Source: a virus. Taken from it: a stretch of 64,000 nucleotides of DNA. Shown piece by piece: positions 718 to 46,513 of this stretch (within the stretch, counting starts at the first letter, position 1; each line of letters begins with the position of its first letter). Location of the stretch: IMG/VR virus record IMGVR_UViG_3300031578_000013, positions 1-64,000 of that record; one strand, 5' to 3'. The position numbers were made by a program, and so were the translations under genes. Below the pieces are notes generated by a model. The model did no database searches. It saw nothing but the letters and a program-made list of their open reading frames with translations, and was not told the DNA's origin.

Positions 718-1581
718 TTAAGTGCCACTTCGTCTTCCCCATTGTTGATCTAATAAAGAACCATTTGGATATCGAATGTTATATTCTTCTAACGACAACA
801 TGCATTTATTTCCATATTCAAGTGCGATAGTTTCTCGCAATCTCGTTTCAAATTCCGGTTTGTTGCCTTCTCTCGCATGACACGATTTACATAATGTTGC
901 AAATAACCATCCGGATTTATTATTGTTACAGCATGTGGATTTATCACGTGTTACATGATGGACACTCATGTGTTTGTTGTCATTATCTTCTATCCCGGCT
1001 CTACAAAATATGCATTTATTTCCATATCTCGCCCTTACACGCTTTCGGATTTTTAATATCGGATCTGTCCATTTCTTGCAATATACACCAGCCGTTGCAA
1101 ATCTTTTCCAATCTTCTTCTGGGATACCCTGGTGAGATGCACTCATTTTCATTCTGATGTCTTCTGATATGCTCATACCAACATGACACTCTGCAATTTT
1201 TCCTTTCATCTCATCAGAAAAACTCTTTCCATAATTGTGATTCTTCTCACCGCTTGTCGCAATCCTAATCTTCTCTTTAACCTCCTCTGATAATTGTTTA
1301 CCATAATTATAATGCTTCTCCCCTCTATTGGCATCACCAATCGCCTTTTTTATATACTCTGGTCTGTGCGTTCCATACAAAGGATTCTTATCACCTCTTC
1401 GCGAATCCCCGATTTTCTTTCTTGTCTCTTCTGAAAATACCTTCCCAAAATTGTGATTCTTCTCACCAGAATGTGAGAGTCGCATTTTTTCTCTCGTGGC
1501 ATCACTGGCTGTGTGTCCCGTTCTTGCAAGCCTGTTTTTTTCCAGGTGTTCCGGAGATTGTTTGTAACCTTTCTTTGGCAT
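718..1581 (-). CDS. NUMOD3-repeat HNH homing endonuclease
   Basis: Repeated GEKNHN(F/Y)GK..SEE.K.KI motifs; C-terminal CxxC...VHH...LCKSCH. Confidence 0.85.
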   Translation of the reverse strand: MPKKGYKQSPEHLEKNRLARTGHTASDATREKMRLSHSGEKNHNFGKVFSEETRKKIGDSRRGDKNPLYGTHRPEYIKKAIGDANRGEKHYNYGKQLSEEVKEKIRIATSGEKNHNYGKSFSDEMKGKIAECHVGMSISEDIRMKMSASHQGIPEEDWKRFATAGVYCKKWTDPILKIRKRVRARYGNKCIFCRAGIEDNDNKHMSVHHVTRDKSTCCNNNKSGWLFATLCKSCHAREGNKPEFETRLRETIALEYGNKCMLSLEEYNIRYPNGSLLDQQWGRRSGT

Positions 1582-1688: not shown

Positions 1689-3056
1689 ATGGATAGGCGC
1701 GACTATACATTTCTCGTAATCCTCGCGCTTGGATGTGCAATGCATCTTTCATTGCTCGCAACATCCAACCTTTCAAACTATAACCTCTACGATACCGACA
1801 CATGGTGTTTCGTGTGGATGTATTCGCAATGGTTTCACCTGTCACCACTATCAACATTTAATATTCTTGCATTATTTCCACCAATATTATCAGCGTTATT
1901 TGCAGTATCAATCTATTATCTCATCACTAGGCTATATAATAAAACGGTTGGATTTTATGCCGGAGTAATGTTTGCGATATCACCGGGATTGTTATATCTG
2001 AATAGTATGTTCGGAATGATAGACCATCACCTGATACAAGTCGTGCTTTTCACGCTGTCCATTGTATGTCTTTTGTTGTTATACAAGGAACGCAACGTGT
2101 GGTGGGTTATCCCAATAATCATTTCTCTGATTTGTATTCGTTTTACTTCTCCGGTATTAGACGAGATATATTATGGGTTGTTTATCGTGTGTGCGATCAT
2201 TTGCGCTGTTCATTATTTAATTACACTGCGGTACTACAAAATGGCAGTCTTGACATTTGTGGCTGTTATTGCATCTGGTTTTTGGCTATTACAACCGTTA
2301 AACATTATCCCACGAGCAACAAGTTGGATTTCCTGGGTAGAACCAATTACTGAAATACAACCATCAGATCCAATAATATTCTTGATAAAATTTAACACTT
2401 TATTATTCGTTATCATTTTGGGTGTTGCTTCATTTCATCATTCGGATAAAGATGCACCAGAAATCATATTGATATTTCTTACTGTAGTATTATTCATTGC
2501 GACATTAAGATTTGTCAGGATGGAATATATATTCGCTGCCCCATTGATGATCCTATCGGCGTATTATATTGATAAGTATTTCACACGAGACATATCCCAC
2601 TCCATAATAGCAATATTCCTAATTATATCTATTCTATTCGGATGCGTTATTACAGCAGAGATGATGAGGACTGAAATAAACAACGAGGCATGGGATGGTG
2701 CGCTGAAATTTATATCAAAAGAACCGAATGGGCTGGTTCTATCACATGGGGATTATGGATACTGGATTAAGAATGCCAACCAAACAGAGTTCGATAATTC
2801 AGCGTGGGGAAACGCGCTCAACGGAGGAAAGATATTCACTTCGTCTAATATAACAGCAGCGAAAGAATTGATAATGTCGCATGGTATATCTTATATAATT
2901 GTTACCGAGCGGGATATGCGATATTATGAAGCACAGCAGTTCTATGCAAAATCAACAACTGATTATAATGAGAGCATGCTATTCAAATTAATACGTGGGA
3001 CTTCTGGTTATGATGCGATATATTCAAAAGATGGTATTATAATATATAAGACGTAA
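1689..3056 (+). CDS. aglB: Compact AglB/STT3-like oligosaccharyltransferase (GT-C fold) with variant WWDYG motif
   Basis: Multi-TM N-terminal part with motifs in AglB order: DTDTW, PPIL..L, AISPG...GMIDHH, PITEIQP (TIXE-like) and RFVRMEY. The soluble domain has W..AL.F, VLSHGDYGYWI (for WWDYG) and YIIV..D. Confidence 0.8.
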   Translation: MDRRDYTFLVILALGCAMHLSLLATSNLSNYNLYDTDTWCFVWMYSQWFHLSPLSTFNILALFPPILSALFAVSIYYLITRLYNKTVGFYAGVMFAISPGLLYLNSMFGMIDHHLIQVVLFTLSIVCLLLLYKERNVWWVIPIIISLICIRFTSPVLDEIYYGLFIVCAIICAVHYLITLRYYKMAVLTFVAVIASGFWLLQPLNIIPRATSWISWVEPITEIQPSDPIIFLIKFNTLLFVIILGVASFHHSDKDAPEIILIFLTVVLFIATLRFVRMEYIFAAPLMILSAYYIDKYFTRDISHSIIAIFLIISILFGCVITAEMMRTEINNEAWDGALKFISKEPNGLVLSHGDYGYWIKNANQTEFDNSAWGNALNGGKIFTSSNITAAKELIMSHGISYIIVTERDMRYYEAQQFYAKSTTDYNESMLFKLIRGTSGYDAIYSKDGIIIYKT

Positions 3057-8223: not shown

Positions 8224-8832
8224 ATGGATGAAGTTTTGGAAGAACAAATATTACCAAAAGCCATAGTAAAAGAGAACACAAGGATCTTAACACCAAAAGA
8301 GTATGCAAAATTAAAAGAAAAATTATCTGCCGATTATAATTGCATATGTGATGTTCTTTTGTATACTGGAATGAGAATGCCGGAATTTATAAAATTTTCA
8401 AAACACCCGGAATGGTATGATGCACACAGGAGGTGTATCGAACTTCCAACAACAGCGATCAGAAAGAAAAAGACGGTTTATAAAACCCGTCAGATCAATT
8501 TGAATGTTAATGGGTGTGATGCCATAAAGCATTTCCAGTCTATGGTGAAAGCAAATCTGCATATCCCATCCAGACAGTCAATGGTGGGTGTTCTATCACG
8601 TGCTGCGGTTGAAGCAAAACTTCCAGAGGGTGATAAGGGAATATGCCCGAAAATGTTCAGGAAGATGCTTGTATCGTATCTCATGAAGTGTTTCCCAGAA
8701 AGAATGTTTGAAATTGCTGCAAATATGGGGCATACATTAGAGGTTATGAGGATTAATTATACAAATCTATCTTTTGCAAGAGAAGATACAGAAGATATTA
8801 GGATTTTTTTGAAAGGGTGGGGTGATGCATGA
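8224..8832 (+). CDS. Tyrosine recombinase/integrase (catalytic domain only)
   Basis: LLYTGMRMPE (R1), KMFRK (R2), MGH and terminal NY; 202 aa. Confidence 0.85.
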   Translation: MDEVLEEQILPKAIVKENTRILTPKEYAKLKEKLSADYNCICDVLLYTGMRMPEFIKFSKHPEWYDAHRRCIELPTTAIRKKKTVYKTRQINLNVNGCDAIKHFQSMVKANLHIPSRQSMVGVLSRAAVEAKLPEGDKGICPKMFRKMLVSYLMKCFPERMFEIAANMGHTLEVMRINYTNLSFAREDTEDIRIFLKGWGDA

Positions 8833-11640: not shown

Positions 11641-11736
11641 ATGGTTCAGAAAACCAAGGTGAAGGTAAAGCAGTATGTGAGAGATGTGCCGAGTAAATAC
11701 CGTCACCACAAAACGCCAAGACCGAAAAAGTATTAA
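11641..11736 (+). CDS. Very small, highly basic protein (31 aa)
   Basis: MVQKTKVKVKQYVRDVPSKYRHHKTPRPKKY, preceded by AGGAG and a TATA-like TTTATATT. Confidence 0.45.
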   Translation: MVQKTKVKVKQYVRDVPSKYRHHKTPRPKKY

Positions 11737-12296
11737 AAAGACTCTTCTTTTATTTTTGATCTCCATCTATTTCCAAGACCACTATACATAGATGTGTTTT
11801 TAGACGAATTACAATGTCGACATAACGCTTGTGCATTTTTAAATGTTAATGCACCACCCTTTGATAATGGTATTATACAATCTTTTTGTGCTTTCATATC
11901 TTCTGAAAATACACGCATACAAATAGCGCATCTATGATTCTGCATAATTAAAATATAATTCCATTCTACAAATGATAGTGTGTGTTCAACATTTATATTA
12001 TATTTTCTAGATACACTCCTATGATCCTCTTTTGAATAATTGAATTTTCCTTTTTCTGTAATACCAAATCTTTTTTTCCTGGATTTATACCGTGGTGTTT
12101 TTTCGAGTTCTTTTTCCCTGGCTTTGTAGAATGGCGAGATCCTATATTCGCGCTTACACTTTATGCAAATTATCATGAGACCATCTTTATTTCTTTTATC
12201 TTTATGGAATTCAGATACGGATTTTGCACAATTGCACTTAGTACAGATTTTTATTCCATTTACCGCTCTTGGCATACTTACAATATTTGGATTCAA
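11733..12296 (-). CDS. HNH endonuclease-family protein (catalytic His replaced by Cys)
   Basis: N-terminal CxxC...CxxC; C-terminal CAIC...KDCIIPLSKGG...NAQALCRHCNSSK. Confidence 0.8.
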   Translation of the reverse strand: MNPNIVSMPRAVNGIKICTKCNCAKSVSEFHKDKRNKDGLMIICIKCKREYRISPFYKAREKELEKTPRYKSRKKRFGITEKGKFNYSKEDHRSVSRKYNINVEHTLSFVEWNYILIMQNHRCAICMRVFSEDMKAQKDCIIPLSKGGALTFKNAQALCRHCNSSKNTSMYSGLGNRWRSKIKEESF

Positions 12297-12669: not shown

Positions 12670-14198
12670 ACTAGTAATAACATATTAGAAAGTGCCTAAC
12701 AGGTTAAGGAGATGAGAAAAATGCCGTACGCAATAACAAATGGAACGGAATGGTTAAGTGGTGTAATTACCGCCGGTAAAACACGACCGATATTAACAAA
12801 GCTCACAGAACGCCGGTACGAGTACGACGACTATAACGCTGCTGATGACGTAATTACGGGATTATATCAAAACGGGTACGGCCCGGTAGCTACCACTCTG
12901 CGTATTGTACCGGTACGAACACTCTCACTTTTTGCCCGGATTACGCCCGGACTCGTAAACAGATGTATTGTGATTGCGATATCCTGTGGGGAGCGGGAGC
13001 ACCGTGGTACGGTCGCAAAGAACACAGTGGATATAGTATTCAGGTGTGATCATGTCAGTACTGGATAAAAGACAGGATATCGAACAGATTACCGATGCAC
13101 TGCTATATGATGCAATGGGATCGCGGCGGTTTGTCCATGCAGTATGCAACGACCTGAACGCTTTTTCGGCCAATGTTGAGGATTACAAAGGGATCATCTA
13201 TGCATGGGCTAACCGGCTATACATCGCTAATCAAATTGCGTATATTCTCACCTATTCGCATAATGATGACTGCGATATGACCATTGTGCAGCTCAACGAC
13301 ACGGACCACTTAAACCACGGTGGGCATCTGATGAAGGATATTGCCCGGTGGTATAGGATGTTGGAATCAATTAAGTATAATTTGTTCTCTAACGGCGGGC
13401 AGGTTATGTTATGCCGTGAGGATATGGAGCGCCTTGATACTCTAATGAGCGTACTGAGCCGGGAAATAGTCGGAATGTATCAAAAGGAAAAAGGAAAGGT
13501 GAAATAATTATGAATTGGCTAAACGCAGTGCAGGAAGTAAAGAGAGATCATCAATTTTGTATGATACACACCCCAACCGGCAACAAGGTAACAAAGAGAA
13601 AAACAAATTTCTATATCGATACATTAGAATCTATAGAAAATTTGGAGACTGAAGGATCTTCGGATAAAGCAATTTGCAAAATATTACCAACCGCAAAAAA
13701 GGTACTGAAAACCGATTGTGTGTTAATGGATGCTGTAACCGCAAATATGCTATGCTGTATCTACGATGCACTATCACCGGATAACCAAAAGAAATTCGCA
13801 GGATTTAAAATCGATTTTGCAGTAAAAACGGGATGGAAATTATACGAAAAATGCAAGGTGTGATCATGACTGAAGTATTGCAATACATCAGGAAAAACCG
13901 GGGCAGGTTGCCAAAGATGTTTCTGCCCTTCTCTCTGTTAAGAACATCACAGAGATCAGGATAGTAAAGAGAGAAAAAGAAATATTCGTTTATTCGGGGA
14001 GTGAGTAAGATGTCACAATTTATCTTGAAAATCAAGTTAGGCAATGAAGCAATGCTAACAGGTTATGACATTGCAGGCGCATTAAGAGAGATTGCCGATA
14101 AGGTAAATGATAATGAAGATATGAGAGAATTTTCAGGAGAAAAAAGGATACTGGATATTAACGGTAATAGCGTTGGTACGTGGTCAGTAAAGTAAATC

Positions 14199-14259
14199 TA
14201 CCCTCATAAACCTTTTAGGGTTTTTGCGTTCAATCGCATTGAGGGTATACCTGCGCAGG
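14199..14259 (+). ncRNA. Candidate structured RNA element, copy 1 (three-way junction with T-loop-like hairpin)
   Basis: TACCCTCA...TGAGGGTA stem enclosing AAACC-ttttag-GGTTT and GCG-TTCAAT-CGC hairpins; intergenic. Confidence 0.5.
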
Positions 14260-15534
14260 CAGGGATTAGAGGAGATGTAAAGACAATGTTGGAAGTGTTT
14301 GTAATCTATCAGCATAGAAATATGCAGAAATTTGTATTCGGATATACAAAGGATGAAAAAATCGCAGTATCCGAATTAATGCGATTGACGAATGAATCAA
14401 GCGAAAACCATTTTTCGATGGAATATAATTTCATCCCGTTTAATGGTGTATTGCTAAAGGATAATTCACACAAATAAGGAGATGTAAAGTAATGCAAGCA
14501 AAAACCAGATATTCGGTAAATGTGATGGATCTCACAAAAGACGATGTCTTAAGCACCTTTATGATCGCGCCGGTGATTCAATCACGAATAATTGTAGATG
14601 TTGAAAAAGGGCGCATTGATGGTAAAGCAGTGGTGCTTGATTGTCCTGAAGAGCAAGCATTAGCGATAATTGAGATCATCCATCAGAAGTATGGGAAAAA
14701 TGAATTCAGATGCTATAAGGGCACAAAGAGGATTTAACCATGCCAAAAACAATTAAAATTTCAATCATCCAAGATGAGATCAATCGACTACTATCACTGG
14801 ATAACATCGACGAACAAACCAAAATTACCCTTTGTAATTTCATCGAAAAAATCCTTATGGATACCAAAAACTATAAGGGTTTTAATCACATCGACTGGTC
14901 AAACGGAGGTTTCGATCAATGGGAAAAAGACGGCGAACCGGGGTTTCCTGAAAAATCAAAATATCTCGGAAGGGAATATTCAAGGGTATATTACAAAAGT
15001 GAGAAGTTGATTTAACCATGTCACAAATTACCACTCACAGAAAATCCCTTTTTGATATCTCATTACGGGATATCCAATTAGACAAACATATGATAGTGAT
15101 ACGAGAAATAGAACCGGCGTATAATGATTCGTTCGCATATTACCTTTGTACAATTAGGGAAATTCATAATCCAGAAAGTAAAGACCCTGTAGTATGTGTC
15201 TGGATTAAGGCTATGTCTTTTGACGATAAAAGATGGTATAAATCATCATCCACATTAGCATGGTTTAGAGCATCAAAAATATTGAGGATTGATAATAATC
15301 TTCAATATGAATTATTACCGGAGCCCTGATCATTATGCAAAAACAGAAAGGTGAATAACAATGATGAAAATGGAGCGACCAATATCATACAAAGCAGCGG
15401 TATCCGAAAAACGATCACTAATGAGATGTGGTATAAAATGTCACGTAATTGAATCAAAAATATTTAATTTGGATTACTTATACAATCGTAATGAACCTCA
15501 ATGGATATCCACCTACATGGTACAATTATTATAA

Positions 15535-15595
15535 TCCCATTTTTACATCGGTAATAGCGTTCAATCGCAAAATGGGAATACCCTGTAATGGGGTT
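15535..15595 (+). ncRNA. Candidate structured RNA element, copy 2
   Basis: TCCCATTTT...AAAATGGGA stem enclosing TAC-atcg-GTA and GCG-TTCAAT-CGC hairpins; intergenic. Confidence 0.5.
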
Positions 15596-18500
15596 AAGGG
15601 AGATGTCAGACTATGAGAAACACAAAAAAACTGGATGCTCTATTAATCGAAAAATCGGTTAATATGGCACGCCGAAAAGGAGACGAATATAACGGTTTCC
15701 TTTTTGCACAAATGAATACAGCGCGTTTAACCGATGCTGAAAGAAGATCCTGCAATGTGTATCTATTCGGTGCAATGTGGGATAGGATGACCATTGAAGA
15801 TTTGAAGGCATTACCATGATGCAAATATCATCAACCCGAAAAAACATTGCTATGGTTGTGTTTACCATTGGTGATACAATCCATTTTACACCACTGGACA
15901 AATACAACCCTAATGTAATGGATGCAAAAGCACCGGTGTTCGATGGAACTTTTGATGACTGCGTGACATTCATTTCAGAGGTTTTATAATGGATGCCTAT
16001 TTCACAACTTGTAAAGATGCTGGTCGCACTGCATACCTGTTAGGGCCATTCACCACAGAAAAAGCATGTAAAGTATTTGCAGAATTCCCGGAGGATAACC
16101 CAGAATCCAGGCACACTGAAATATATGATGCATGTTGTGAGATTGATCGCAAGGCGCACTTTTTCGCATATGGTATGTGTCGAGTAAGGGATTTTAAACC
16201 GGGTGAAATAACCGGGATTTTGAATAGAGTTGATAAAGAGAAATGGGATAAGGTGTTAGGATGACGTTCGATAAAGTAATACCATATCGTTGCTCAACTG
16301 GGTGCAAGCCCTTTATGCTAGCAACAAACATCAATGCACCAATTTGTCCAACGTGTAAAGATCCGATGACACGATCAAAAGAGCATTTTGCACAAAAGAG
16401 GAGATATTACCATGTTGATTAATTACGCTATCCGAGATATCAATACGGGAAAATATTACCGTCATCCAAAAACCGATGTAACCGGCGAACGACTAGAGTT
16501 GGTATCTGGTATAAACCGGGCTATGACATGGGTACAATCAGATGATGGAGAACCACGTACAGCCCGCTATGTAATCTGTCATCATAACCTAATCGGTTGT
16601 GAAATTGTAGCATGTTATGAACATGAAAATCTTAAGAAAGGGAGATTGTATAACCGGGAAGTTAAGGGAGTTGTATCATGACCACAATTCCTGAAAAAGA
16701 ATGGAAAAAGATACAAACTCTATCTGATACTATCAAACGTAAAGTATGGGAGATTGAGAACGATATAGAAAATCTGGATAACCTCTTACACGCTTTACAT
16801 GGAGAAGGTATTAGAAACCGAAAATATACCACGAGTGGTTATCCGCAGGTATTTCAAAATGGGGAATGGGTTGATCGGTGATGGGATCATGATAGAATTC
16901 GCAGATAACAAAACAGGTAAAACCATTATGGTATCCCATGCAGAATCCTTCAAGTACGGCTCTGAAAATCAAAGACGTTTTGCGGATAAGATATCTGCAA
17001 AATATATCCTGATAACAGGAGACAATAGAGGGCGATTGCCACTATGGACAAAGCGTATCTTGAAGGAGAATAATCTTTGGTATAGAAAGATAGGGCGCAC
17101 CACGTATAAGAGTAATACTTTTGCGTTGTATGACGAGAGGATGAAACCATGAATCAAGTATTCAAAGATATTGATGCTATCCTTACTGAATACAAAGTAA
17201 AAGGATTCAAAGTAACTGATGGTGAAATGATCGCTATAAGGAAAAACCATCTTTGGTATTATTTCAGATGGAATTGCAAAGAAAATGGATTAATGCTATC
17301 GGGTGAAACTGATCGTTATGAAAGGAGATGGTAAAACAATGACCCCAGAAGAAATTGCAAAAAACAAAAGATTGCAAGATACGCAATGGAACAAACAACC
17401 AATACCGGATAAATTCGATATGCAGGGGATAATCAAATACCTGCACGAATACTCAGGGAGAATCCCCAACGAGAACGAATGTTTACGATTCAATATGTTT
17501 CTTGAATCATTCCAGGGGAAACCATCAGAGCGGGAATGCTCTGATTTCTTACAGGTATTGGGGATGGTTAAGAAATGACCCCCTCCAAAAAATCCCTACT
17601 CAACCTCTTCAAAGCAAACACCGGCAAAACACAACTCAGAGTGCCACAGATTGATGAGCGGAGGATAGTATTGCAAGGGTGGCAGAATAGCAAGGTAAAG
17701 AATTATAGGAAGTGGTGATGATGAAAATTACAAAAGATGGATACTTTAAAAAAGGCGCATTTAAACTGGGTGTAAACCCAACAATGATCGGACAGAAGAT
17801 CATACACGTTGATCGGTGTGAAACTCCATACGGTTATGATGGATCTTATTGCACGATTGCTGGAATAGGAATTCCACAAAATCCAAAATATGAATATGTG
17901 ATCTTGAGAGAAATTTGTAAGGATAGATCACTCGTGATTGAATGGAATCCCCGCATATTCCCGGGCGAATTATCCAGATTAGAACCGTGGTGGAATGATG
18001 GCAAATGGGTTTTGCTAGAGAGTATAGTATGACCCTCTCCCACTTTGCAAAATCCTATCTCCATCTCCAGGGTGTCGAACTCCTAAAACCGCGAGAGAGA
18101 AGCAAACCCGTTGGGGATAGACAGGGTGAGACTATGATTAAGGTTGATCAATGTGAAAGGGGAGATTTATCATGAATATTGAAATTGGTTGCATTGACAA
18201 ATACGATGCTATGGAAAAATTCGGAAATGACGAGATTGACATTCTATTCCGCACATGGAACGAACAAAGAAATCGGATGACCGGGTGGAGATCATTCCAA
18301 AAAGTATGCAAAACTATTGCCAGTCCAGTATGGCCGTGGGAATATCCATGTTCACAAGTTGAATGGAAATATGTGAGGGTATCATGACCGATTTATCAGA
18401 TGTCGAAATACACTTGTATGTAGAGTGTGTTAAGATGAACTACTCAAAAGAACAATCCGAGAACTTCTTTAAGAGTGTGGATGAGACGATTAACTTCGAA

Positions 18501-24478: not shown

Positions 24479-25357
24479 GTGATTGATATTACCAAAATCA
24501 AATATCCACACCTTGAACGGATTTACAATCTGAAGCCAAACCCGGAGATCCTACTCGGACAGGAAATTTTTTGGACTGAAAAACGGGACGGCTCAAACAT
24601 CGGGGCATACCTCACAGAAGATGGGGTACAGTTACGGAGTCGCAATCAGGACAAAGCATCAGAGGATTTCTATAAAGCGTTCAATGCTTCAGAACAAGCA
24701 GTGGGAATCCTTGAACTGTTACGGGATGCCTCTAATTGGGGTAACGAATACGTTATTTTTGGCGAAATGCTCACAATGGGCAAAAGTCCAACCCGGATAG
24801 AAACCCATGAGAAAAACGAGTTTATTGTATTCGACATCTGGGATTCAAAGCATCAGGGATTCATGAACTATAACGCAACGTTCCAGCATTGTCACCACTT
24901 CGGACTTCCGATAGTTGAACTCTATGGAACATCCAATGTATGCACCGTTGAGGCGCTGTATGCCTTTAAGGATCAGATGCTCGAAAAGGCAAAGGAATGT
25001 GGGAGAGAGGGCGCTGTTGGGAAAGCGTGGGGAGAGACAGCGTTTAATCGTGGTGAGAATGCAGGATGCTCTCGTAATATCACCTACTTCAAAGAGAAGA
25101 ACGATCTACCTGCGCTTGAGAAAGTGCCACGATCAGAACAACCTGGATATGTCATTCTCCCGGAACTTCCAGATTCTGAAATATATGGAGCCACAGAAAA
25201 GGTTCGCACCGATATTGGGGATGAGAAATTCCGTGATATCAGGATCGCCATGCCTTTGATCGCCCGTTACGTTGGTGAGGAATGTAAGAAACACAATTCA
25301 ACTGGGCCAAAGAACTTGTATCAATACTATCAACAGCGTTTGAAGGATATTTCATGA
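24479..25357 (+). CDS. ATP-dependent RNA ligase (Rnl2-like)
   Basis: Nucleotidyltransferase motifs: EKRDGSN (I), RSRN, FGE (III), FIVFDI (IIIa), EGAVGK (IV), FKEK (V). Confidence 0.85.
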   Translation: MIDITKIKYPHLERIYNLKPNPEILLGQEIFWTEKRDGSNIGAYLTEDGVQLRSRNQDKASEDFYKAFNASEQAVGILELLRDASNWGNEYVIFGEMLTMGKSPTRIETHEKNEFIVFDIWDSKHQGFMNYNATFQHCHHFGLPIVELYGTSNVCTVEALYAFKDQMLEKAKECGREGAVGKAWGETAFNRGENAGCSRNITYFKEKNDLPALEKVPRSEQPGYVILPELPDSEIYGATEKVRTDIGDEKFRDIRIAMPLIARYVGEECKKHNSTGPKNLYQYYQQRLKDIS

Positions 25358-40598: not shown

Positions 40599-40978
40599 AC
40601 CATATCGGAGTGTATGGGAGAAAAAGGGGAACCGCAATAGTTGACACACCCAAAGGAATTGTTGTAGTTAAAGGTAAAGATCCCAATTCAAAGTTTATTC
40701 TTCCGGGTGGTGGGCCGAAAGGAAGAGAATCCAGATTGGAGGCATCTGTTCGTGAGTTGCGCGAAGAGACAGGATTGATTGCAAGGGGTGTTTTATTTAT
40801 GTTTGATTACCAAAAATCAAAGGTATTCCTTATAGACGCGATTGGACTTCCGCACCACCACCATGAGATTGCTGCTATCGGATATTATACTCCATATAGT
40901 AACGTTGCGATTACATACGATACTCTAATGGTGATAGAACAATACTTAAGAATGAGGAATAGGATGAGAAGAAAATGA
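40595..40978 (+). CDS. NUDIX hydrolase
   Basis: PGG....ES...A..RELREETGL Nudix box. Confidence 0.9.
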   Translation: MNHIGVYGRKRGTAIVDTPKGIVVVKGKDPNSKFILPGGGPKGRESRLEASVRELREETGLIARGVLFMFDYQKSKVFLIDAIGLPHHHHEIAAIGYYTPYSNVAITYDTLMVIEQYLRMRNRMRRK

Positions 40979-41688
40979 CCACAAGAGTTTGCACGCAGTG
41001 TGGTGTAGAGAAAGACGTGGGTTTATTTTATATAGAAAATAGGAGTAAAAAACCAAGATCGACGTGTATTAAATGTACCAGTTCCGCATGCAAACGATAC
41101 CGAGAAAACAATGCAGATGTATTAAAGGAACACGCAAAATTATATCGGTGCGCCAACAAGCAGGAGATATCGGAACGCAGTAAAGTGTATCGTATGCAGA
41201 ATTCTGAGTTACTAAAACAAAAGAAACGAGAACGGTTTGCAGCAAATTCCGAAGTATTGAATGCAAGACATAGAGCAAAGCATCAACAAAATAAAGATTA
41301 CGACAACGCAAAAACCAAAGAATATCGTGATGCAAATAGAGAAAAAATCAGGGTGTCGGATAGAGCATATTATCTCAATCCAATACGCCAAGCAAAAACA
41401 AAATGGTATAGTCATAATCGGAGGCAGAGAATTTTGAATAGTGATGCATCTCTTACGGTAAAACAGTGGATGAGAATTATAGAGATGCAGAATAACAAAT
41501 GTTCCAATTGTGGGCGTATGTTCGGTGAACATCTAAAACCAACAAGGGATCACATCATTCCTGTATCGCTTGGAGGAGGCTTGACGTTTGGTAACGTTCA
41601 GGCACTTTGCCACTCGTGCAACTGTAAGAAGAGTAGTAGCGTCATATTCACAAGAGCATTAAATGAATTGCTGGTGAACCCATGCTAA
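40975..41688 (+). CDS. HNH endonuclease
   Basis: RDHIIPVSLGG...NVQALCHSCN; paralog of 11733..12296. Confidence 0.85.
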   Translation: MTTRVCTQCGVEKDVGLFYIENRSKKPRSTCIKCTSSACKRYRENNADVLKEHAKLYRCANKQEISERSKVYRMQNSELLKQKKRERFAANSEVLNARHRAKHQQNKDYDNAKTKEYRDANREKIRVSDRAYYLNPIRQAKTKWYSHNRRQRILNSDASLTVKQWMRIIEMQNNKCSNCGRMFGEHLKPTRDHIIPVSLGGGLTFGNVQALCHSCNCKKSSSVIFTRALNELLVNPC

Positions 41689-43364: not shown

Positions 43365-43690
43365 GCGACGAGCACTCGGGGCAATCGGGGTTTGTTCGGT
43401 GGTTTCGTAATAAATATCCAAGCATCTTAATTTTTGCCATCCCTAACGGAAGTTACAGGGATATGTCAACTGCGAAGAAATTAAAAAAAGAGGGGGTTGT
43501 TTCGGGTGTCCCCGACTTGTATGTACCGAAGTACCATTTATGGATTGAGATGAAGCGCAAAGAGGGCGGCGTGTTATCAGAGGAACAAAAGGCAATGCAT
43601 CACTACTTAACTATGATAGGGGATACGGTAATAGTTGGTTACGGTGCAGAAGACGCAAGCCGCAAAGTTTTAGGGGTGATTGGATGGTAA
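43361..43690 (+). CDS. VRR-NUC domain nuclease
   Basis: EH..Q, AIPNG, GVPDL, IEMK...G.LS.EQ. Confidence 0.85.
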   Translation: MSDEHSGQSGFVRWFRNKYPSILIFAIPNGSYRDMSTAKKLKKEGVVSGVPDLYVPKYHLWIEMKRKEGGVLSEEQKAMHHYLTMIGDTVIVGYGAEDASRKVLGVIGW

Positions 43691-44745
43691 TCGTAATTGA
43701 AGGGGATTGTCTTGATGTCATGAAGATGTTTGATAATGATATGTTCGACTCCATCGTGACTGATCCACCAGCAGGGATTTCATTCATGGGAAAAAAGTGG
43801 GATCATGACAAAGGTGGGCGTAACCAGTGGATAGCGTGGATGACAACCGTTGCTACCGAATGTCTGCGTGTCATTAAACCCGGTGGACACGCATTGGTAT
43901 GGTCTATTCCGAGAACGAGCCATTGGACTGCTACAGCGTGGGAAAATGCGGGGTGGGAATGTCGCGACAAAATTGTACATATTTTCGGAAGTGGGTTTCC
44001 GAAAAGTTTAAATATAAGTAAATCTTTGGATGCGATGTTGGGAGCAGAGCGGGAAGTTATTGGGAATAGAACGAGAGTATATGGTTACGAGAAGGACTAT
44101 CACAATTCGTTTGATAATGCATTGTTTGATGTGGGAAACAATAATAAAATTACCGCTCCCACAACAGACATTGCTAAACTTTTTGACGGCTACGGCACCT
44201 CACTCAAACCGGCGCACGAAGATTGGTTGCTCTTTCGTAAACCATTGGCGGGCACAGTCGCGCAGAACGTTTTAAAATATGGCGTGGGTGGGATTAACAT
44301 TGACGGGTGTAGGGTTGAGTTAAACGGAGAAAAGCCATTCCACTATCCAAACGGTGCGGGGGGTAGCGATCCTAATCATATGTGGCGAGGTAGAGAGAAG
44401 GGAGATGGTGACATTCCGCAGATGGGGAATGACAAAGGACGTTTCCCTGCGAATTTAATTCTTGACGATAGTGAATGTGTGAGGGAGTTGTTTCCACATA
44501 GCAAATCTGGGGCAATGACAAAGCCATATGTTTATACAAATACGGGCCATTCGTTAGGTAAGCCTGCAGGTTCCACAAAAACACTTTGTGAATCAAGTGA
44601 AGGTTCCGCAGCCCGTTTCTTCTATTGTGCGAAGGCGAGCAGAAGCGAAAGATCAGAAGGATGCGAAGAGTTTTATACTTTAAACAGCAATATATCTACA
44701 GATGACATAAACGAGATTGTTAAAATACTCGCTTTTGTTACATAA
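43684..44745 (+). CDS. N6/N4 DNA methyltransferase, N-terminal fragment (catalytic motif)
   Basis: GDC, TDPPAG, KPGG, GSGFPKS, LKPAHE, RFPAN, ARFFYCAKAS; lacks FxGxG. Confidence 0.85.
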   Translation: MVIVIEGDCLDVMKMFDNDMFDSIVTDPPAGISFMGKKWDHDKGGRNQWIAWMTTVATECLRVIKPGGHALVWSIPRTSHWTATAWENAGWECRDKIVHIFGSGFPKSLNISKSLDAMLGAEREVIGNRTRVYGYEKDYHNSFDNALFDVGNNNKITAPTTDIAKLFDGYGTSLKPAHEDWLLFRKPLAGTVAQNVLKYGVGGINIDGCRVELNGEKPFHYPNGAGGSDPNHMWRGREKGDGDIPQMGNDKGRFPANLILDDSECVRELFPHSKSGAMTKPYVYTNTGHSLGKPAGSTKTLCESSEGSAARFFYCAKASRSERSEGCEEFYTLNSNISTDDINEIVKILAFVT

Positions 44746-44754
44746 GGTAATATT

Positions 44755-45453
44755 ATGGGTAAGCGAACGGTTTTTAAAAAATATATAATAAAAAAATGTA
44801 TTTTTTGTGGTGTTGATATACTAAAACGCTCAAATGAAAGCATCAATACCTATTATAAACGAAAGTTTTGCAAATTGTCTTGCCAACATCAATGGAATGC
44901 GAAAAATAAAAGTAGCGATGTCAAATGTGATTTTTGTGGAATTTTATTAAGACGGAGAAACAGTGGCATCGGGGTTCATAATTTTTGTTCAGAACGTTGC
45001 CAATATAAATATTATTCTCAAACTCACACAAAAATCGCTTCGTGTAATTGGTGTGGGAAATCATTTACTAAAAAATTATCGGATCGTAAAACCAAAAGAG
45101 TATTTTGTACACGAAAATGCATGGGTGAGTGGCAATCTAAATATGTTATAGGAGAATTGTCCCCCAGTTGGAATGGGGGATCGTCTTCACTGAATCGTAG
45201 AATACGTAGTTTGGTGAAATATGTTACTTGGATGAAACGAGTTTATAATAGGGATAATTATACCTGTCAAGTGTGCGGAGATGCAGTTGGTGGAAATTTA
45301 AATGTGCACCATATTAAATCTCTTTCAAAAATTATCAAAGATTGTGGTATAAAATGTATTGCAGATGCCATCATTTGTTCCGAGTTGTGGGATATAGAAA
45401 ATGGTGTAACAGTTTGTAAAAAATGTCATGCAATTAAACACAGGAGGAAATAG
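44755..45453 (+). CDS. HNH homing endonuclease with Zn-finger repeats, inserted in the MTase gene
   Basis: Repeated CxxC...FC...C; RDNYTCQVCG...VHHIK...NGVTVCKKCH. Confidence 0.85.
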   Translation: MGKRTVFKKYIIKKCIFCGVDILKRSNESINTYYKRKFCKLSCQHQWNAKNKSSDVKCDFCGILLRRRNSGIGVHNFCSERCQYKYYSQTHTKIASCNWCGKSFTKKLSDRKTKRVFCTRKCMGEWQSKYVIGELSPSWNGGSSSLNRRIRSLVKYVTWMKRVYNRDNYTCQVCGDAVGGNLNVHHIKSLSKIIKDCGIKCIADAIICSELWDIENGVTVCKKCHAIKHRRK

Positions 45454-45454
45454 A

Positions 45455-45727
45455 ATGATAATATCAAAAGAGCAATACAATAAACTTCCAAAAAATTTAC
45501 AAGATTGCTTTGAACCTATGAAAAATATTCATCCTACGGTCAAACCCATTGCCCTCTGCAGATACCTCTGCCGTCTCATCACACCCCCAAAGGGATTAAT
45601 CCTTGATCCTTTCGCGGGTTCTGGTTCCACTGGGGTTGCTGCTACTAATGAAGGGTTTGAAAGTATCCTGATTGAGTTAGAACATACATCGTGTGAAACT
45701 GCACGAATGAGGAATGGCTTACATTGA
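45455..45727 (+). CDS. N6/N4 DNA methyltransferase, C-terminal fragment (SAM-binding motif)
   Basis: HPTVKP..L..YL..L, LDPFAGSGSTG; own AGGAGG RBS at 45442. Confidence 0.85.
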   Translation: MIISKEQYNKLPKNLQDCFEPMKNIHPTVKPIALCRYLCRLITPPKGLILDPFAGSGSTGVAATNEGFESILIELEHTSCETARMRNGLH

Positions 45728-45751
45728 TGAATACCGCAACGGAGCAAAACA

Positions 45752-46513
45752 ATGATTGAACCAAACCGAATATACTGCGGGGATAATGTAAAAGTAATGC
45801 AAGATATCCCAGACGAAAGTATTGATCTGACGGTAACATCCCCACCATATGACAAACTGCGAATATATCAAGGCTATTCCTTTGATTTTGCACGAGTAGC
45901 ACAGGAGTTATATCGTATAACAAAGAAGGGTGGTGTTGTTGTCTGGGTTGTTGGTGATGCCACAATTAAAGGAAGTGAAAGTGGAACTTCTTTTAGACAG
46001 GCACTTCATTTTAAAGAGATTGGATTCAATCTGCATGATACGATGATCTATGCGAAGAATAGCTATATGCCACTTACACACAATAGGTATGAGCAAGCGT
46101 TTGACTATATGTTTGCTTTCAGTAAAGGGAAACCCAACATATTCAATGCTATAAAAATACCTTCGGTTACCGCAGGGACAACCCGCAACCGTGGTGGTAG
46201 CAAGGCAAAAGAAGTCACATATTCAGAACGAGTGAGAAATGAAAAAACCGTGGTGTCTACGACAAAGCAGCATCCGAATATATTCTATTATGATGTCGGA
46301 AAAAATGATAAAACAGAACATAATGCACCATTCCCAGAACGGTTAGCAAATGATCACATCCTCTCTTGGAGCAACGAAGGTGACATTGTTTTAGATCCGT
46401 TCAATGGTTCTGGGACAACTACAAAAATGGCAAAGAAAAACAATCGCAAATTTATCGGAATCGACATCTCTCAACAATATTGTGATAATGCTATGGCACG
46501 ATTAGAAATGTGA
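45752..46513 (+). CDS. N4/N6 DNA methyltransferase (beta class)
   Basis: TSPPY, H.APFP, LDPFNGSGTT. Confidence 0.9.
   Translation: MIEPNRIYCGDNVKVMQDIPDESIDLTVTSPPYDKLRIYQGYSFDFARVAQELYRITKKGGVVVWVVGDATIKGSESGTSFRQALHFKEIGFNLHDTMIYAKNSYMPLTHNRYEQAFDYMFAFSKGKPNIFNAIKIPSVTAGTTRNRGGSKAKEVTYSERVRNEKTVVSTTKQHPNIFYYDVGKNDKTEHNAPFPERLANDHILSWSNEGDIVLDPFNGSGTTTKMAKKNNRKFIGIDISQQYCDNAMARLEM

Follow-up and report, generated by a model that had tools for sequence, protein, structure and literature searches.

A structure-conserved, tRNA-like RNA element at the borders of small-gene cassettes in the early region of an uncultured virus

The DNA analysed here (the window) is the first 64 kb of the 76-kb IMG/VR virus record IMGVR_UViG_3300031578_000013, whose estimated completeness is 75%. 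From ~12.5 kb to 35 kb, small plus-strand genes follow one another tightly, overlapping by 4 bp or leaving gaps of a few bases. Two spacers in this region are exceptional, 14196-14285 (90 nt) and 15535-15612 (78 nt), and each is occupied by one copy of the RNA element that is the subject of this work. Copy 1 extends over 14196-14266 and copy 2 over 15532-15594. Five small genes (14286..15534, plus strand) lie between them, and no family could be assigned to the small genes that adjoin the elements.

The element begins 0-4 nt after a UAA stop codon. It consists of a closing stem (P1), a variable insert that may form a hairpin (P2), an inner hairpin (P3), a short linker and a further hairpin (P4), and is followed by a Shine-Dalgarno sequence (Table 1). 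The initial annotation of this DNA, which was made from the letters alone, had described two copies located a few bases after stop codons, in which closing stems of different sequence enclose an identical inner hairpin. A position check confirmed this description, the distance to the stop codon being 3 nt in copy 1 and zero in copy 2. The copies have in common an exact 13-mer, GCGTTCAATCGCA, and the pentamer ATACC, while their closing stems are unrelated in sequence. The 13-mer forms a hairpin of 3-4 bp with the loop TTCAAT and occurs twice in the whole 76-kb record, both times in the elements. The same annotation had extended the element through TACC and a short hairpin to a downstream GGAGATGT. 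The former two parts are indeed present, but GGAGATGT, which is found ~10 nt ahead of the ATG in both copies, also precedes the neighboring gene at 14492. As that gene has no element, GGAGATGT belongs to the local Shine-Dalgarno context and not to the fold. RNAfold predicted the described fold for copy 1, with a z-score of -2.5 relative to dinucleotide shuffles (-4.0 for the core), and a weaker one for copy 2 (-0.4 over the whole stretch, -2.7 for the core).

Table 1. Positions of the two element copies, their parts and the adjoining genes in the window.
Feature	Position	Strand	Remarks
Upstream gene of copy 1	14001-14195	+	phrog_9027-like; TAA stop at 14193-14195
TAA stop before copy 1	14193-14195	+	3 nt ahead of the closing stem
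Copy 1 core	14199..14247	+	P1, P2 and P3; covariance-model scores 82.3 and 76.6 bits
Copy 1 P1	14199-14206 pairs with 14240-14247	+	TACCCTCA/TGAGGGTA, 8 perfect pairs
Copy 1 P2 (hairpin 1)	14208-14223	+	
Copy 1 P3	14225-14238	+	holds GCGTTCAATCGCA; loop TTCAAT, G-C closing pair
Copy 1 linker (UA) and P4	14248..14263	+	P4 hairpin 14250-14263, CCUGC/GCAGG
Copy 1 downstream Shine-Dalgarno GGAG(ATGT) and ATG	14271..14288	+	ordinary translation start, outside the fold
Gene downstream of copy 1	14286-14477	+	ATG at 14286
Upstream gene of copy 2	15361-15534	+	TAA stop at 15532-15534
TAA stop before copy 2	15532-15534	+	directly abuts P1
Copy 2 core	15535..15577	+	P1, weak P2 and P3; covariance-model scores 76.7 and 73.3 bits
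Copy 2 P1	15535-15543 pairs with 15569-15577	+	TCCCATTTT/AAAATGGGA, 9 perfect pairs
Copy 2 P2	15544-15553	+	weak, 3-bp hairpin
Copy 2 P3	15557-15568	+	loop TTCAAT; shared 13-mer GCGTTCAATCGCA at 15557-15569
Copy 2 linker (AU) and P4	15578..15594	+	P4 hairpin 15580-15594, ACCC/GGGU
Copy 2 downstream Shine-Dalgarno GGAG(ATGT) and ATG	15599..15615	+	start of gene 15613-15819
Conserved 68-aa gene downstream of copy 2	15613-15819	+	ATG at 15613

Relatives of the element were reached through the neighboring genes. For the 68-aa gene that follows copy 2 there are 24 homologue clusters with 67-97% identity, and for a 63-aa gene there are three. The 68-aa family was aligned (A3), and 11 metagenome loci were retrieved. 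Upstream of the 68-aa homologue in contigs L011, L012, L014 and L019, the same parts are found in identical order and in different sequence: TAA, a closing stem, a hairpin, a hairpin with a 6-7-nt loop, the other strand of the closing stem, A-U-R-C-C, a hairpin and a Shine-Dalgarno sequence. As the initial annotation had proposed, covariance models were then built, from 6 sequences (R1) and from 16 (R2), and scanning with them found further homologs, giving 18 copies in 10 contigs, window included. Two copies each are located in the window, L013, L019 and L029, two and a weak third in L021, three within 1.1 kb in L011, and one each in L012, L014, L015 and L016 (= L017 = L018). All of these copies are intergenic and on the same strand as the genes; in nearly all, the ATG of a small gene marks the end. 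The complete 76-kb record contains only the two copies described above. Neither unrelated viral DNA (661 kb, E up to 1) nor the distant relatives L004-L010 gave a match to the model, and hence the family is both specific and rare. Judged by these comparisons, the two elements are members of a rare, lineage-restricted, structure-conserved family located in the variable early-gene region of uncultured soil, sediment and landfill viruses.

Other searches added no members. The exact 13-mer plus ATACC pattern was found nowhere in IMG/VR beyond its own record, and a blastn search of 13500-16500 against GenBank phages with settings for distant similarity gave no match. The pattern TAATCCC..GGGAATRCCC matched 105 stretches in IMG/VR, none of which was confirmed by the model among the 80 loci listed. 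The 103-aa middle gene used as a query had no relatives, and a search of species genomes with the 68-aa family returned nothing. Among the distant relatives, L006-L010, reached via the phrog_9027-like upstream gene, are GC-rich phages without the element, and L004 and L005, reached via the primase-polymerase, do not carry it either. A descriptor match in the L004/L005 relatives falls inside a 354-aa open reading frame (ORF) and is a false positive. A 22-mer of the L013/L029 subgroup matched L029 alone in IMG/VR. Its one match in a species genome, a metagenome-assembled genome of Eisenbacteria, is located inside a GC-rich coding region without an element. This match is due to chance and therefore gives no clue to the host.

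The structure was evaluated in two alignments, a MAFFT-only alignment of 6 sequences (A4) and a model-fitted alignment of 16 sequences (A8). In A4, 81.3% of the cells are paired compared to 69.0% in shuffles, a value that 0 of 500 shuffles reach, and 9 of the 19 pairs show changes on both sides. Its covariation score is 0.40, with 0.18 for the shuffled alignment and 0.05-0.25 for slid controls. The corresponding figures for A8 are 84.8% against 65.8%, both-side changes in 16 of the 19 pairs, and a covariation score of 0.434 (0.152 shuffled; 0.05-0.18 in slid controls). A4 is the more independent test of the two as it was not fitted to any structure. Four helices are supported by covariation. 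Furthermore, single-sequence folds, both constrained and unconstrained, place P3 inside a closing stem in nearly all of the 17-18 copies, the main exception being the unconstrained fold of L011:2780. The core in the sister contig L019 differs from that of copy 1 by four substitutions, of which two change Watson-Crick pairs to G-U wobbles, one lies in the bulge and one opens the outermost pair.

Population evidence was obtained from Logan contigs of four soil metagenomes. None of the variants listed there is located inside the core of copy 1 (14199-14247), whereas the flanking genes carry many. Variants of P4 alter the loop and keep or lengthen the stem. In copy 2, P4 varies by changes at 15584-15586, an insertion at 15580 and a loose end at 15580, and the variant contigs of copy 1 have a different P4 from 14251 onward. 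Together with the compensatory changes over ~18 copies in 10 contigs, which bear out the initial argument that a conserved structure with differing sequence implies selection, these data lead us to take the structure as real and under selection. The opposite view would be that the elements are functionless remnants, the two window copies having been duplicated recently and those of the relatives being orthologous spacers. Such an origin could account for the 13-mer and ATACC held in common. However, the two closing stems have nothing in common in sequence and yet form 8 and 9 perfect base pairs in the same register, the core is more conserved in the population than the flanking coding DNA, and the A4 result speaks against an artefact of model fitting. 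Because of the covariation, with double compensatory changes in most pairs across contigs, the remnant explanation is close to refuted.

In some copies the 5' arm of P1 can pair instead with the 3' arm of P4, owing to a repeated AAUGGG or AGAGGG. This alternative pairing is possible in copy 2 of the window (15535-15594), in L019 (1495-1560) and in L021 (2704-2770) and is poor in copy 1. A two-state fold is conceivable in such copies.

The most constant part of the element is the stack of P1 and P3. P1 has 5-9 bp, mostly of the form YCCC.../...GGGR, and its 3' strand directly continues the 3' strand of P3, which has 3-6 bp and a 6-7-nt loop opening with YYCR. In 16 of the 17 curated copies, P1 and P3 add up to 11-13 bp, mostly 12 (core pairs are counted and a small bulge in P1 is allowed). 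The split between the two helices varies (9+3, 8+4, 7+5, 6+6) and the sum stays constant, in agreement with coaxial helices that total ~12 bp. Counted from the loop to the end of P1, the 3' strand measures 12 nt in most copies. P3 is closed by a G-C pair in 17 of 17 copies, and its loop opens with UUC, UCC or CUC followed by A or G, which is the G-C closing pair and UUCR-like start of a T-loop. The base after P1 is A in 13 of the 17 copies and is followed by U in nearly all; it is never followed by CC. The linkers AAUACC, AAUGCC and AUAUCC thus offer an unpaired discriminator-like base without CC, as in a trailer that RNase Z can process, and the U-R-C-C after the unpaired A leads into P4. Few unpaired nucleotides are conserved otherwise. 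As modelled, these core dimensions are those of the acceptor/T-arm half of a CCA-less tRNA precursor.

This likeness to tRNA needs to be delimited. The initial annotation called the element a tRNA-like three-way junction with a T-loop of the GTTCRA type. The tRNA-like geometry holds for the acceptor/T-arm half, but the element is not a tRNA gene: it has no anticodon arm, ARAGORN found 0 tRNA genes over the window, and neither the tRNA model RF00005 nor any other Rfam 15 family matched any element at E up to 10. Similarly, the T-loop motif is preserved in its closing pair and YYCR start, and the rest of the loop is only partly conserved, with the equivalent of A58 mostly missing. The three-way junction does not stand as a conserved feature. 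P2 is strong in copy 1 as well as in L012 and L014, it is marginal in copy 2, and L011:1720, L013:2468 and L029:9652 lack it altogether. With P2 optional, the junction is not invariant. The suggestion of a decoy for anticodon nucleases is not supported either, there being no anticodon-like loop in the element. No self-cleaving ribozyme (hammerhead, twister, pistol, hatchet or hepatitis delta virus-like) was matched in Rfam at the same threshold. A ribozyme is also not compatible with the junction strands, which at 0-2 nt are not conserved and are too short for a catalytic core. We also considered and discarded a miniature inverted-repeat transposable element, as the terminal inverted repeats differ between copies; a kissing interaction of the P3 and P4 loops, which by eye is not consistent among copies; and a longer P1 that would include the stop codon (UAAU with AAUR), which amounts to 2-3 weak pairs without covariation.

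The element is closely tied to the ends of genes. A TAA codon is found 0-4 nt upstream in 15 of the 15 copies with an identifiable upstream frame; in the window, TAA ends 30 of the 97 long plus-strand frames. In the comparison with the sister contig L019, identity is at the random level before 14193, rises to ~90% over 14193-14472 (through the gene 14286-14477), is random again to ~15530, and is ~90% from there onward, the stretch 14473-15530 being replaced in L019 by unrelated DNA. Since the identity is confined in this way, the shared unit comprises the TAA, the element and the downstream gene. In L014, the genes on the two sides of its single element are homologues of those that flank the array of copy 1, five genes and copy 2 in the window. 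Among the Logan contigs, loose ends fall exactly before 14195 and before 15536 and also behind 14251 and behind 15580, and joints lead into 14195-14202 and 15536. The breakpoints in L019 and the Logan contigs coincide with the element edges, and hence the elements are cassette borders. We are highly confident that they constitute a genuine, selected structured family at such borders.

Exchange appears to have occurred inside the element as well. The four copies of L013 (2468-2789) and L029 (9251-9733), which come from different samples, have identical P3, P1 3' strand, linker and most of P4, and differ in the 5' arm and the insert. This pattern suggests recombination within the element itself.

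A border of this kind might in principle be a recombination site that acts as DNA. Its inverted repeats would fold in single-stranded DNA and be cut and joined by a recombinase, as in the attC sites of integrons, with the RNA fold being a by-product. Integron attC sites are likewise inverted repeats that vary in sequence, keep their structure and lie at the very ends of swappable gene cassettes, and conservation of structure rather than sequence, the position flush with stop codons and breakpoints exactly at the element edges all agree with such a function. The window even contains a weak tyrosine-recombinase-like gene, a 202-aa ORF at 8224-8832 (plus strand) with a Phage_integrase match (E 0.009, 16.2 bits). 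This match is below the cut-off of 27.1 bits, and the ORF is 5 kb away. A cassette bounded by a 31-bp repeat was noted just after this ORF in the initial annotation. Functional attC sites have defined R and L boxes and extrahelical bases and are recognised as folded single-stranded DNA by the IntI integrase; none of this was found in the present elements. Their arm ends read (U)CCC.../...GGG(A) without AAC/GTT cores, so that attC membership was rejected, and inspection revealed no RYYYAAC/GTTRRRY core sites. Moreover, the elements always point in the direction of transcription and are coupled to P4 and a Shine-Dalgarno sequence, and a conserved core of 45-57 nt suffices for ordinary homologous exchange. 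We therefore consider a dedicated recombination site improbable.

The reading that we favor, with a probability of roughly 0.4, is a messenger RNA (mRNA) processing and stabilising signal resembling the t-elements of mitochondria, which also serves as a homology patch for cassette exchange. It is preferred because it uses most of the conserved features. The P1/P3 stack would mimic the acceptor/T-arm top half of a CCA-less tRNA precursor, and a host endonuclease would cut the polycistronic early transcript in the short A-U linker. The enzyme could be RNase Z, which processes tRNA 3' ends, or RNase E, whose cut in the A-U linker would give the same products as that of RNase Z; RNase P might act at the 5' edge. 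Cleavage would leave a stable tRNA-like fold at the end of the upstream message. The downstream message would carry P4 1-2 nt from its new 5' end, with the ribosome-binding site behind it, and hairpins close to the 5' end are classically known to stabilise mRNA. At the DNA level, comparison of the contigs shows the conserved core to be the shared patch for the exchange of neighboring genes between related viruses. RNase Z needs the acceptor stem and T arm and not the D or anticodon arms, cuts right after the discriminator and is inhibited by C directly downstream (PMC7479834). In plant mitochondria, tRNA-like t-elements are associated with mRNA 5' and 3' ends (PMC1920247).

Several points weigh against this interpretation. 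The equivalent of A58 is U or C in most 7-nt loops (UCCAUAA, CUCAUGA, UUCAUCA, UUCGUGA and UUCGCGU have U or C at position 5), while the 6-nt loops UUCAAU, UUCGAU and UCCAAU possess the A and are one nucleotide short, so that the loops are not full T-loops. The first base pair is usually U-A, whereas tRNAs typically have G-C, and a compact fold could have a length of ~12 bp by coincidence. Those RNase Z enzymes of archaea that have been studied required a mature 5' end (PMC7479834). That cleavage by RNase P after the stop codon would be productive is argued against by its product, an upstream message without 3' protection and with the stop codon at its very end. Among the sequencing runs listed as containing the region, none is of RNA. 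There are only two copies in the 76-kb record, and the element is therefore not a general operon punctuation. Finally, gene-sized deletions with the joints 14467>14716 and 14741>15318 have ends without an element, and hence the elements are not the sole breakpoints. In several soil metagenome contigs the stretches 14467-14716 and 14741-15318 are missing, with 7 nt or 4 nt in their place; lost with them are the gene 14492-14737 and the two genes 14740-15329, which are thus presence/absence polymorphisms.

Much of the same evidence could be explained without any cleavage. The fold might be a structural insulator or stabiliser, never cut, that keeps the ribosome-binding site of a swappable gene independent of whichever gene precedes it; translational coupling or scanning from the preceding stop codon may be blocked as well, and 3' exonucleases acting on decay intermediates may be slowed. 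The element is positioned between the stop codon and the next Shine-Dalgarno sequence, which stays unpaired in predicted folds, it moves with the downstream gene as one cassette, and P2 is dispensable. The scarcity of conserved unpaired nucleotides fits as well. In addition, a terminating ribosome must melt P1 because the stop codon abuts it. An insulator, however, leaves unexplained why the ~12-bp stack is constant with a variable split, why the hairpin retains its G-C pair and YYCR start, and why the A-U linker is kept, and most of the tightly packed genes of the same operon manage without an element. For these reasons we regard it as possible, albeit somewhat unlikely.

The very features that an insulator does not account for, namely the YYCR loop start, the invariant G-C closing pair and the conserved AAUR linker, could be read by a phage or host RNA-binding protein that recognises the P3 loop and the linker. 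The element would then be a protein-binding operator, and the protein might repress the translation of early genes or act in processive antitermination of the nut/put type. Its position just upstream of ribosome-binding sites and the presence of two or three copies per early region are suitable for such a role. On the other hand, the loops diverge among contigs, being 6 or 7 nt long and variable at positions 5-7, the three copies of L011 in 1.1 kb exceed what antitermination would need, and the neighboring small genes without a family provide no candidate RNA-binding protein. An operator is thus rather unlikely.

We find it very unlikely that the excised RNA is itself the product. Host tRNA-maturation enzymes would in that case release the P1-P3 core (~45-57 nt) as a minihelix, perhaps CCA-tailed, which would act in trans as a decoy for host defence toxins directed at the acceptor end of tRNAs. 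The same virus encodes an RNA ligase domain (PF09414, E 1e-17) in a 292-aa ORF at 24479-25357 (plus strand), which would fit an RNA-damage arms race. No partner kinase-phosphatase was recognised among the scanned neighboring ORFs. Phage RNA ligases are known from tRNA-repair counter-defence.

Two known systems are particularly close to the element. The first is that of the t-elements (Forner et al. 2007, PMC1920247) and of mitochondrial tRNA punctuation, in which, as here, a tRNA-like fold defined by structure and not by sequence resides in a polycistronic transcript beside coding regions and has been proposed to direct RNase Z and/or RNase P in cis. In mitochondria, the stop codon directly abuts the punctuating tRNA just as it abuts the fold in the present family. 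Unlike t-elements, the family is found in a prokaryotic virus, has the acceptor/T-arm half only with a variable insert on the 5' strand, is extended by a further hairpin and a Shine-Dalgarno sequence, and also marks recombination borders; its cleavage is our inference. The second system is that of the promoter early stem-loop (PeSL) cassettes of T4-like phages (Arbiol et al. 2010, PMC2839356; Comeau et al. 2014, PMC4122927). These are likewise short conserved intergenic modules in hyperplastic early regions which flank small accessory genes, and unrelated genes are exchanged there between close relatives. The breakpoints by which PeSLs are recognised, the edges of insertions, deletions or replacements between close relatives, are found at the present elements too. 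However, a PeSL is a sequence-conserved combination of a sigma-70-type promoter and a terminator stem-loop, whereas the helices of the present elements co-vary and their fold has tRNA-like dimensions. No sigma-70 promoter-like site was found within 14196-14285 or 15535-15612 and no terminator-like site on the plus strand of the region, with no T run after P1 or P4. The elements are consequently neither PeSLs nor simple promoters or intrinsic terminators.

Hairpins cleaved by RNase III lie between the early genes of phage T7, where the cut leaves a protective hairpin on the upstream message. They are likewise structured intercistronic signals in an early polycistronic transcript, but RNase III sites are irregular duplexes of ~20 bp, and the present stack of ~12 bp with its T-arm-like loop does not match them. 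A survey of IMG/VR reported more than 8,000 candidate structured RNAs, phage intergenic sequences among which some are tRNA-like or located upstream of genes (PMC10690425). It describes no punctuation by tRNA top halves; the present family may or may not be among its unnamed candidates. In summary, the family is new and narrow and belongs to a kind familiar in principle, either a tRNA-like signal for processing or a regulatory cassette that lies at a mosaic border.

Elsewhere in the window, the replication module resembles families of tailed phages. It includes an NrS-1-type primase-polymerase with DUF3987, a helicase, AAA_24 and DUF669 proteins, a Cas4-like exonuclease, a topoisomerase, and HNH and NUMOD3 endonucleases. 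The initial notion of an archaeal virus is not supported by these genes, and an AglB-like glycosyltransferase alone leans towards archaea. This gene, located at 1689-3056 (plus strand), contains an STT3/AglB-like oligosaccharyl-transferase core (Pfam E 2e-7), and the structure neighbors of its product in the Atlas are mostly archaeal AglB proteins (template-modelling score 0.85), with bacterial clusters too. It is a possible clue to the host or to virion glycosylation.

Homing-endonuclease-type ORFs are present at 718-1581 (minus strand), 11733-12296 (minus strand) and 40975-41688 (plus strand), one being a protein with four NUMOD3 repeats and two belonging to the HNH type. Such genes could contribute to the mosaicism of the virus. 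Also of note is an N-terminal fragment of a DNA methylase at 43684-44745 (plus strand), whose match is limited to profile positions 2-80. It is followed by an HNH-domain ORF at 44755-45453 and by a complete N6/N4 methylase at 45752-46513 (plus strand). The arrangement (43684-46513) is consistent with a methylase interrupted by an HNH gene.

The findings add to the known motifs a covariation-supported RNA that is absent from Rfam. They also supply an annotation rule for viruses of this kind, in which a TAA followed by the fold and a ribosome-binding site indicates a cassette border. The element is a candidate for a compact natural part, either a processing site or an insulator, usable in synthetic operons. 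If the favored reading is true, a virus of prokaryotes would employ tRNA punctuation in the style of mitochondria, recruiting the tRNA-trimming enzymes of its host to cut and stabilise single-gene messages from a long early transcript. Furthermore, a functional RNA fold would double as the homology patch by which small accessory genes, which usually include anti-defence functions, move between related viruses.

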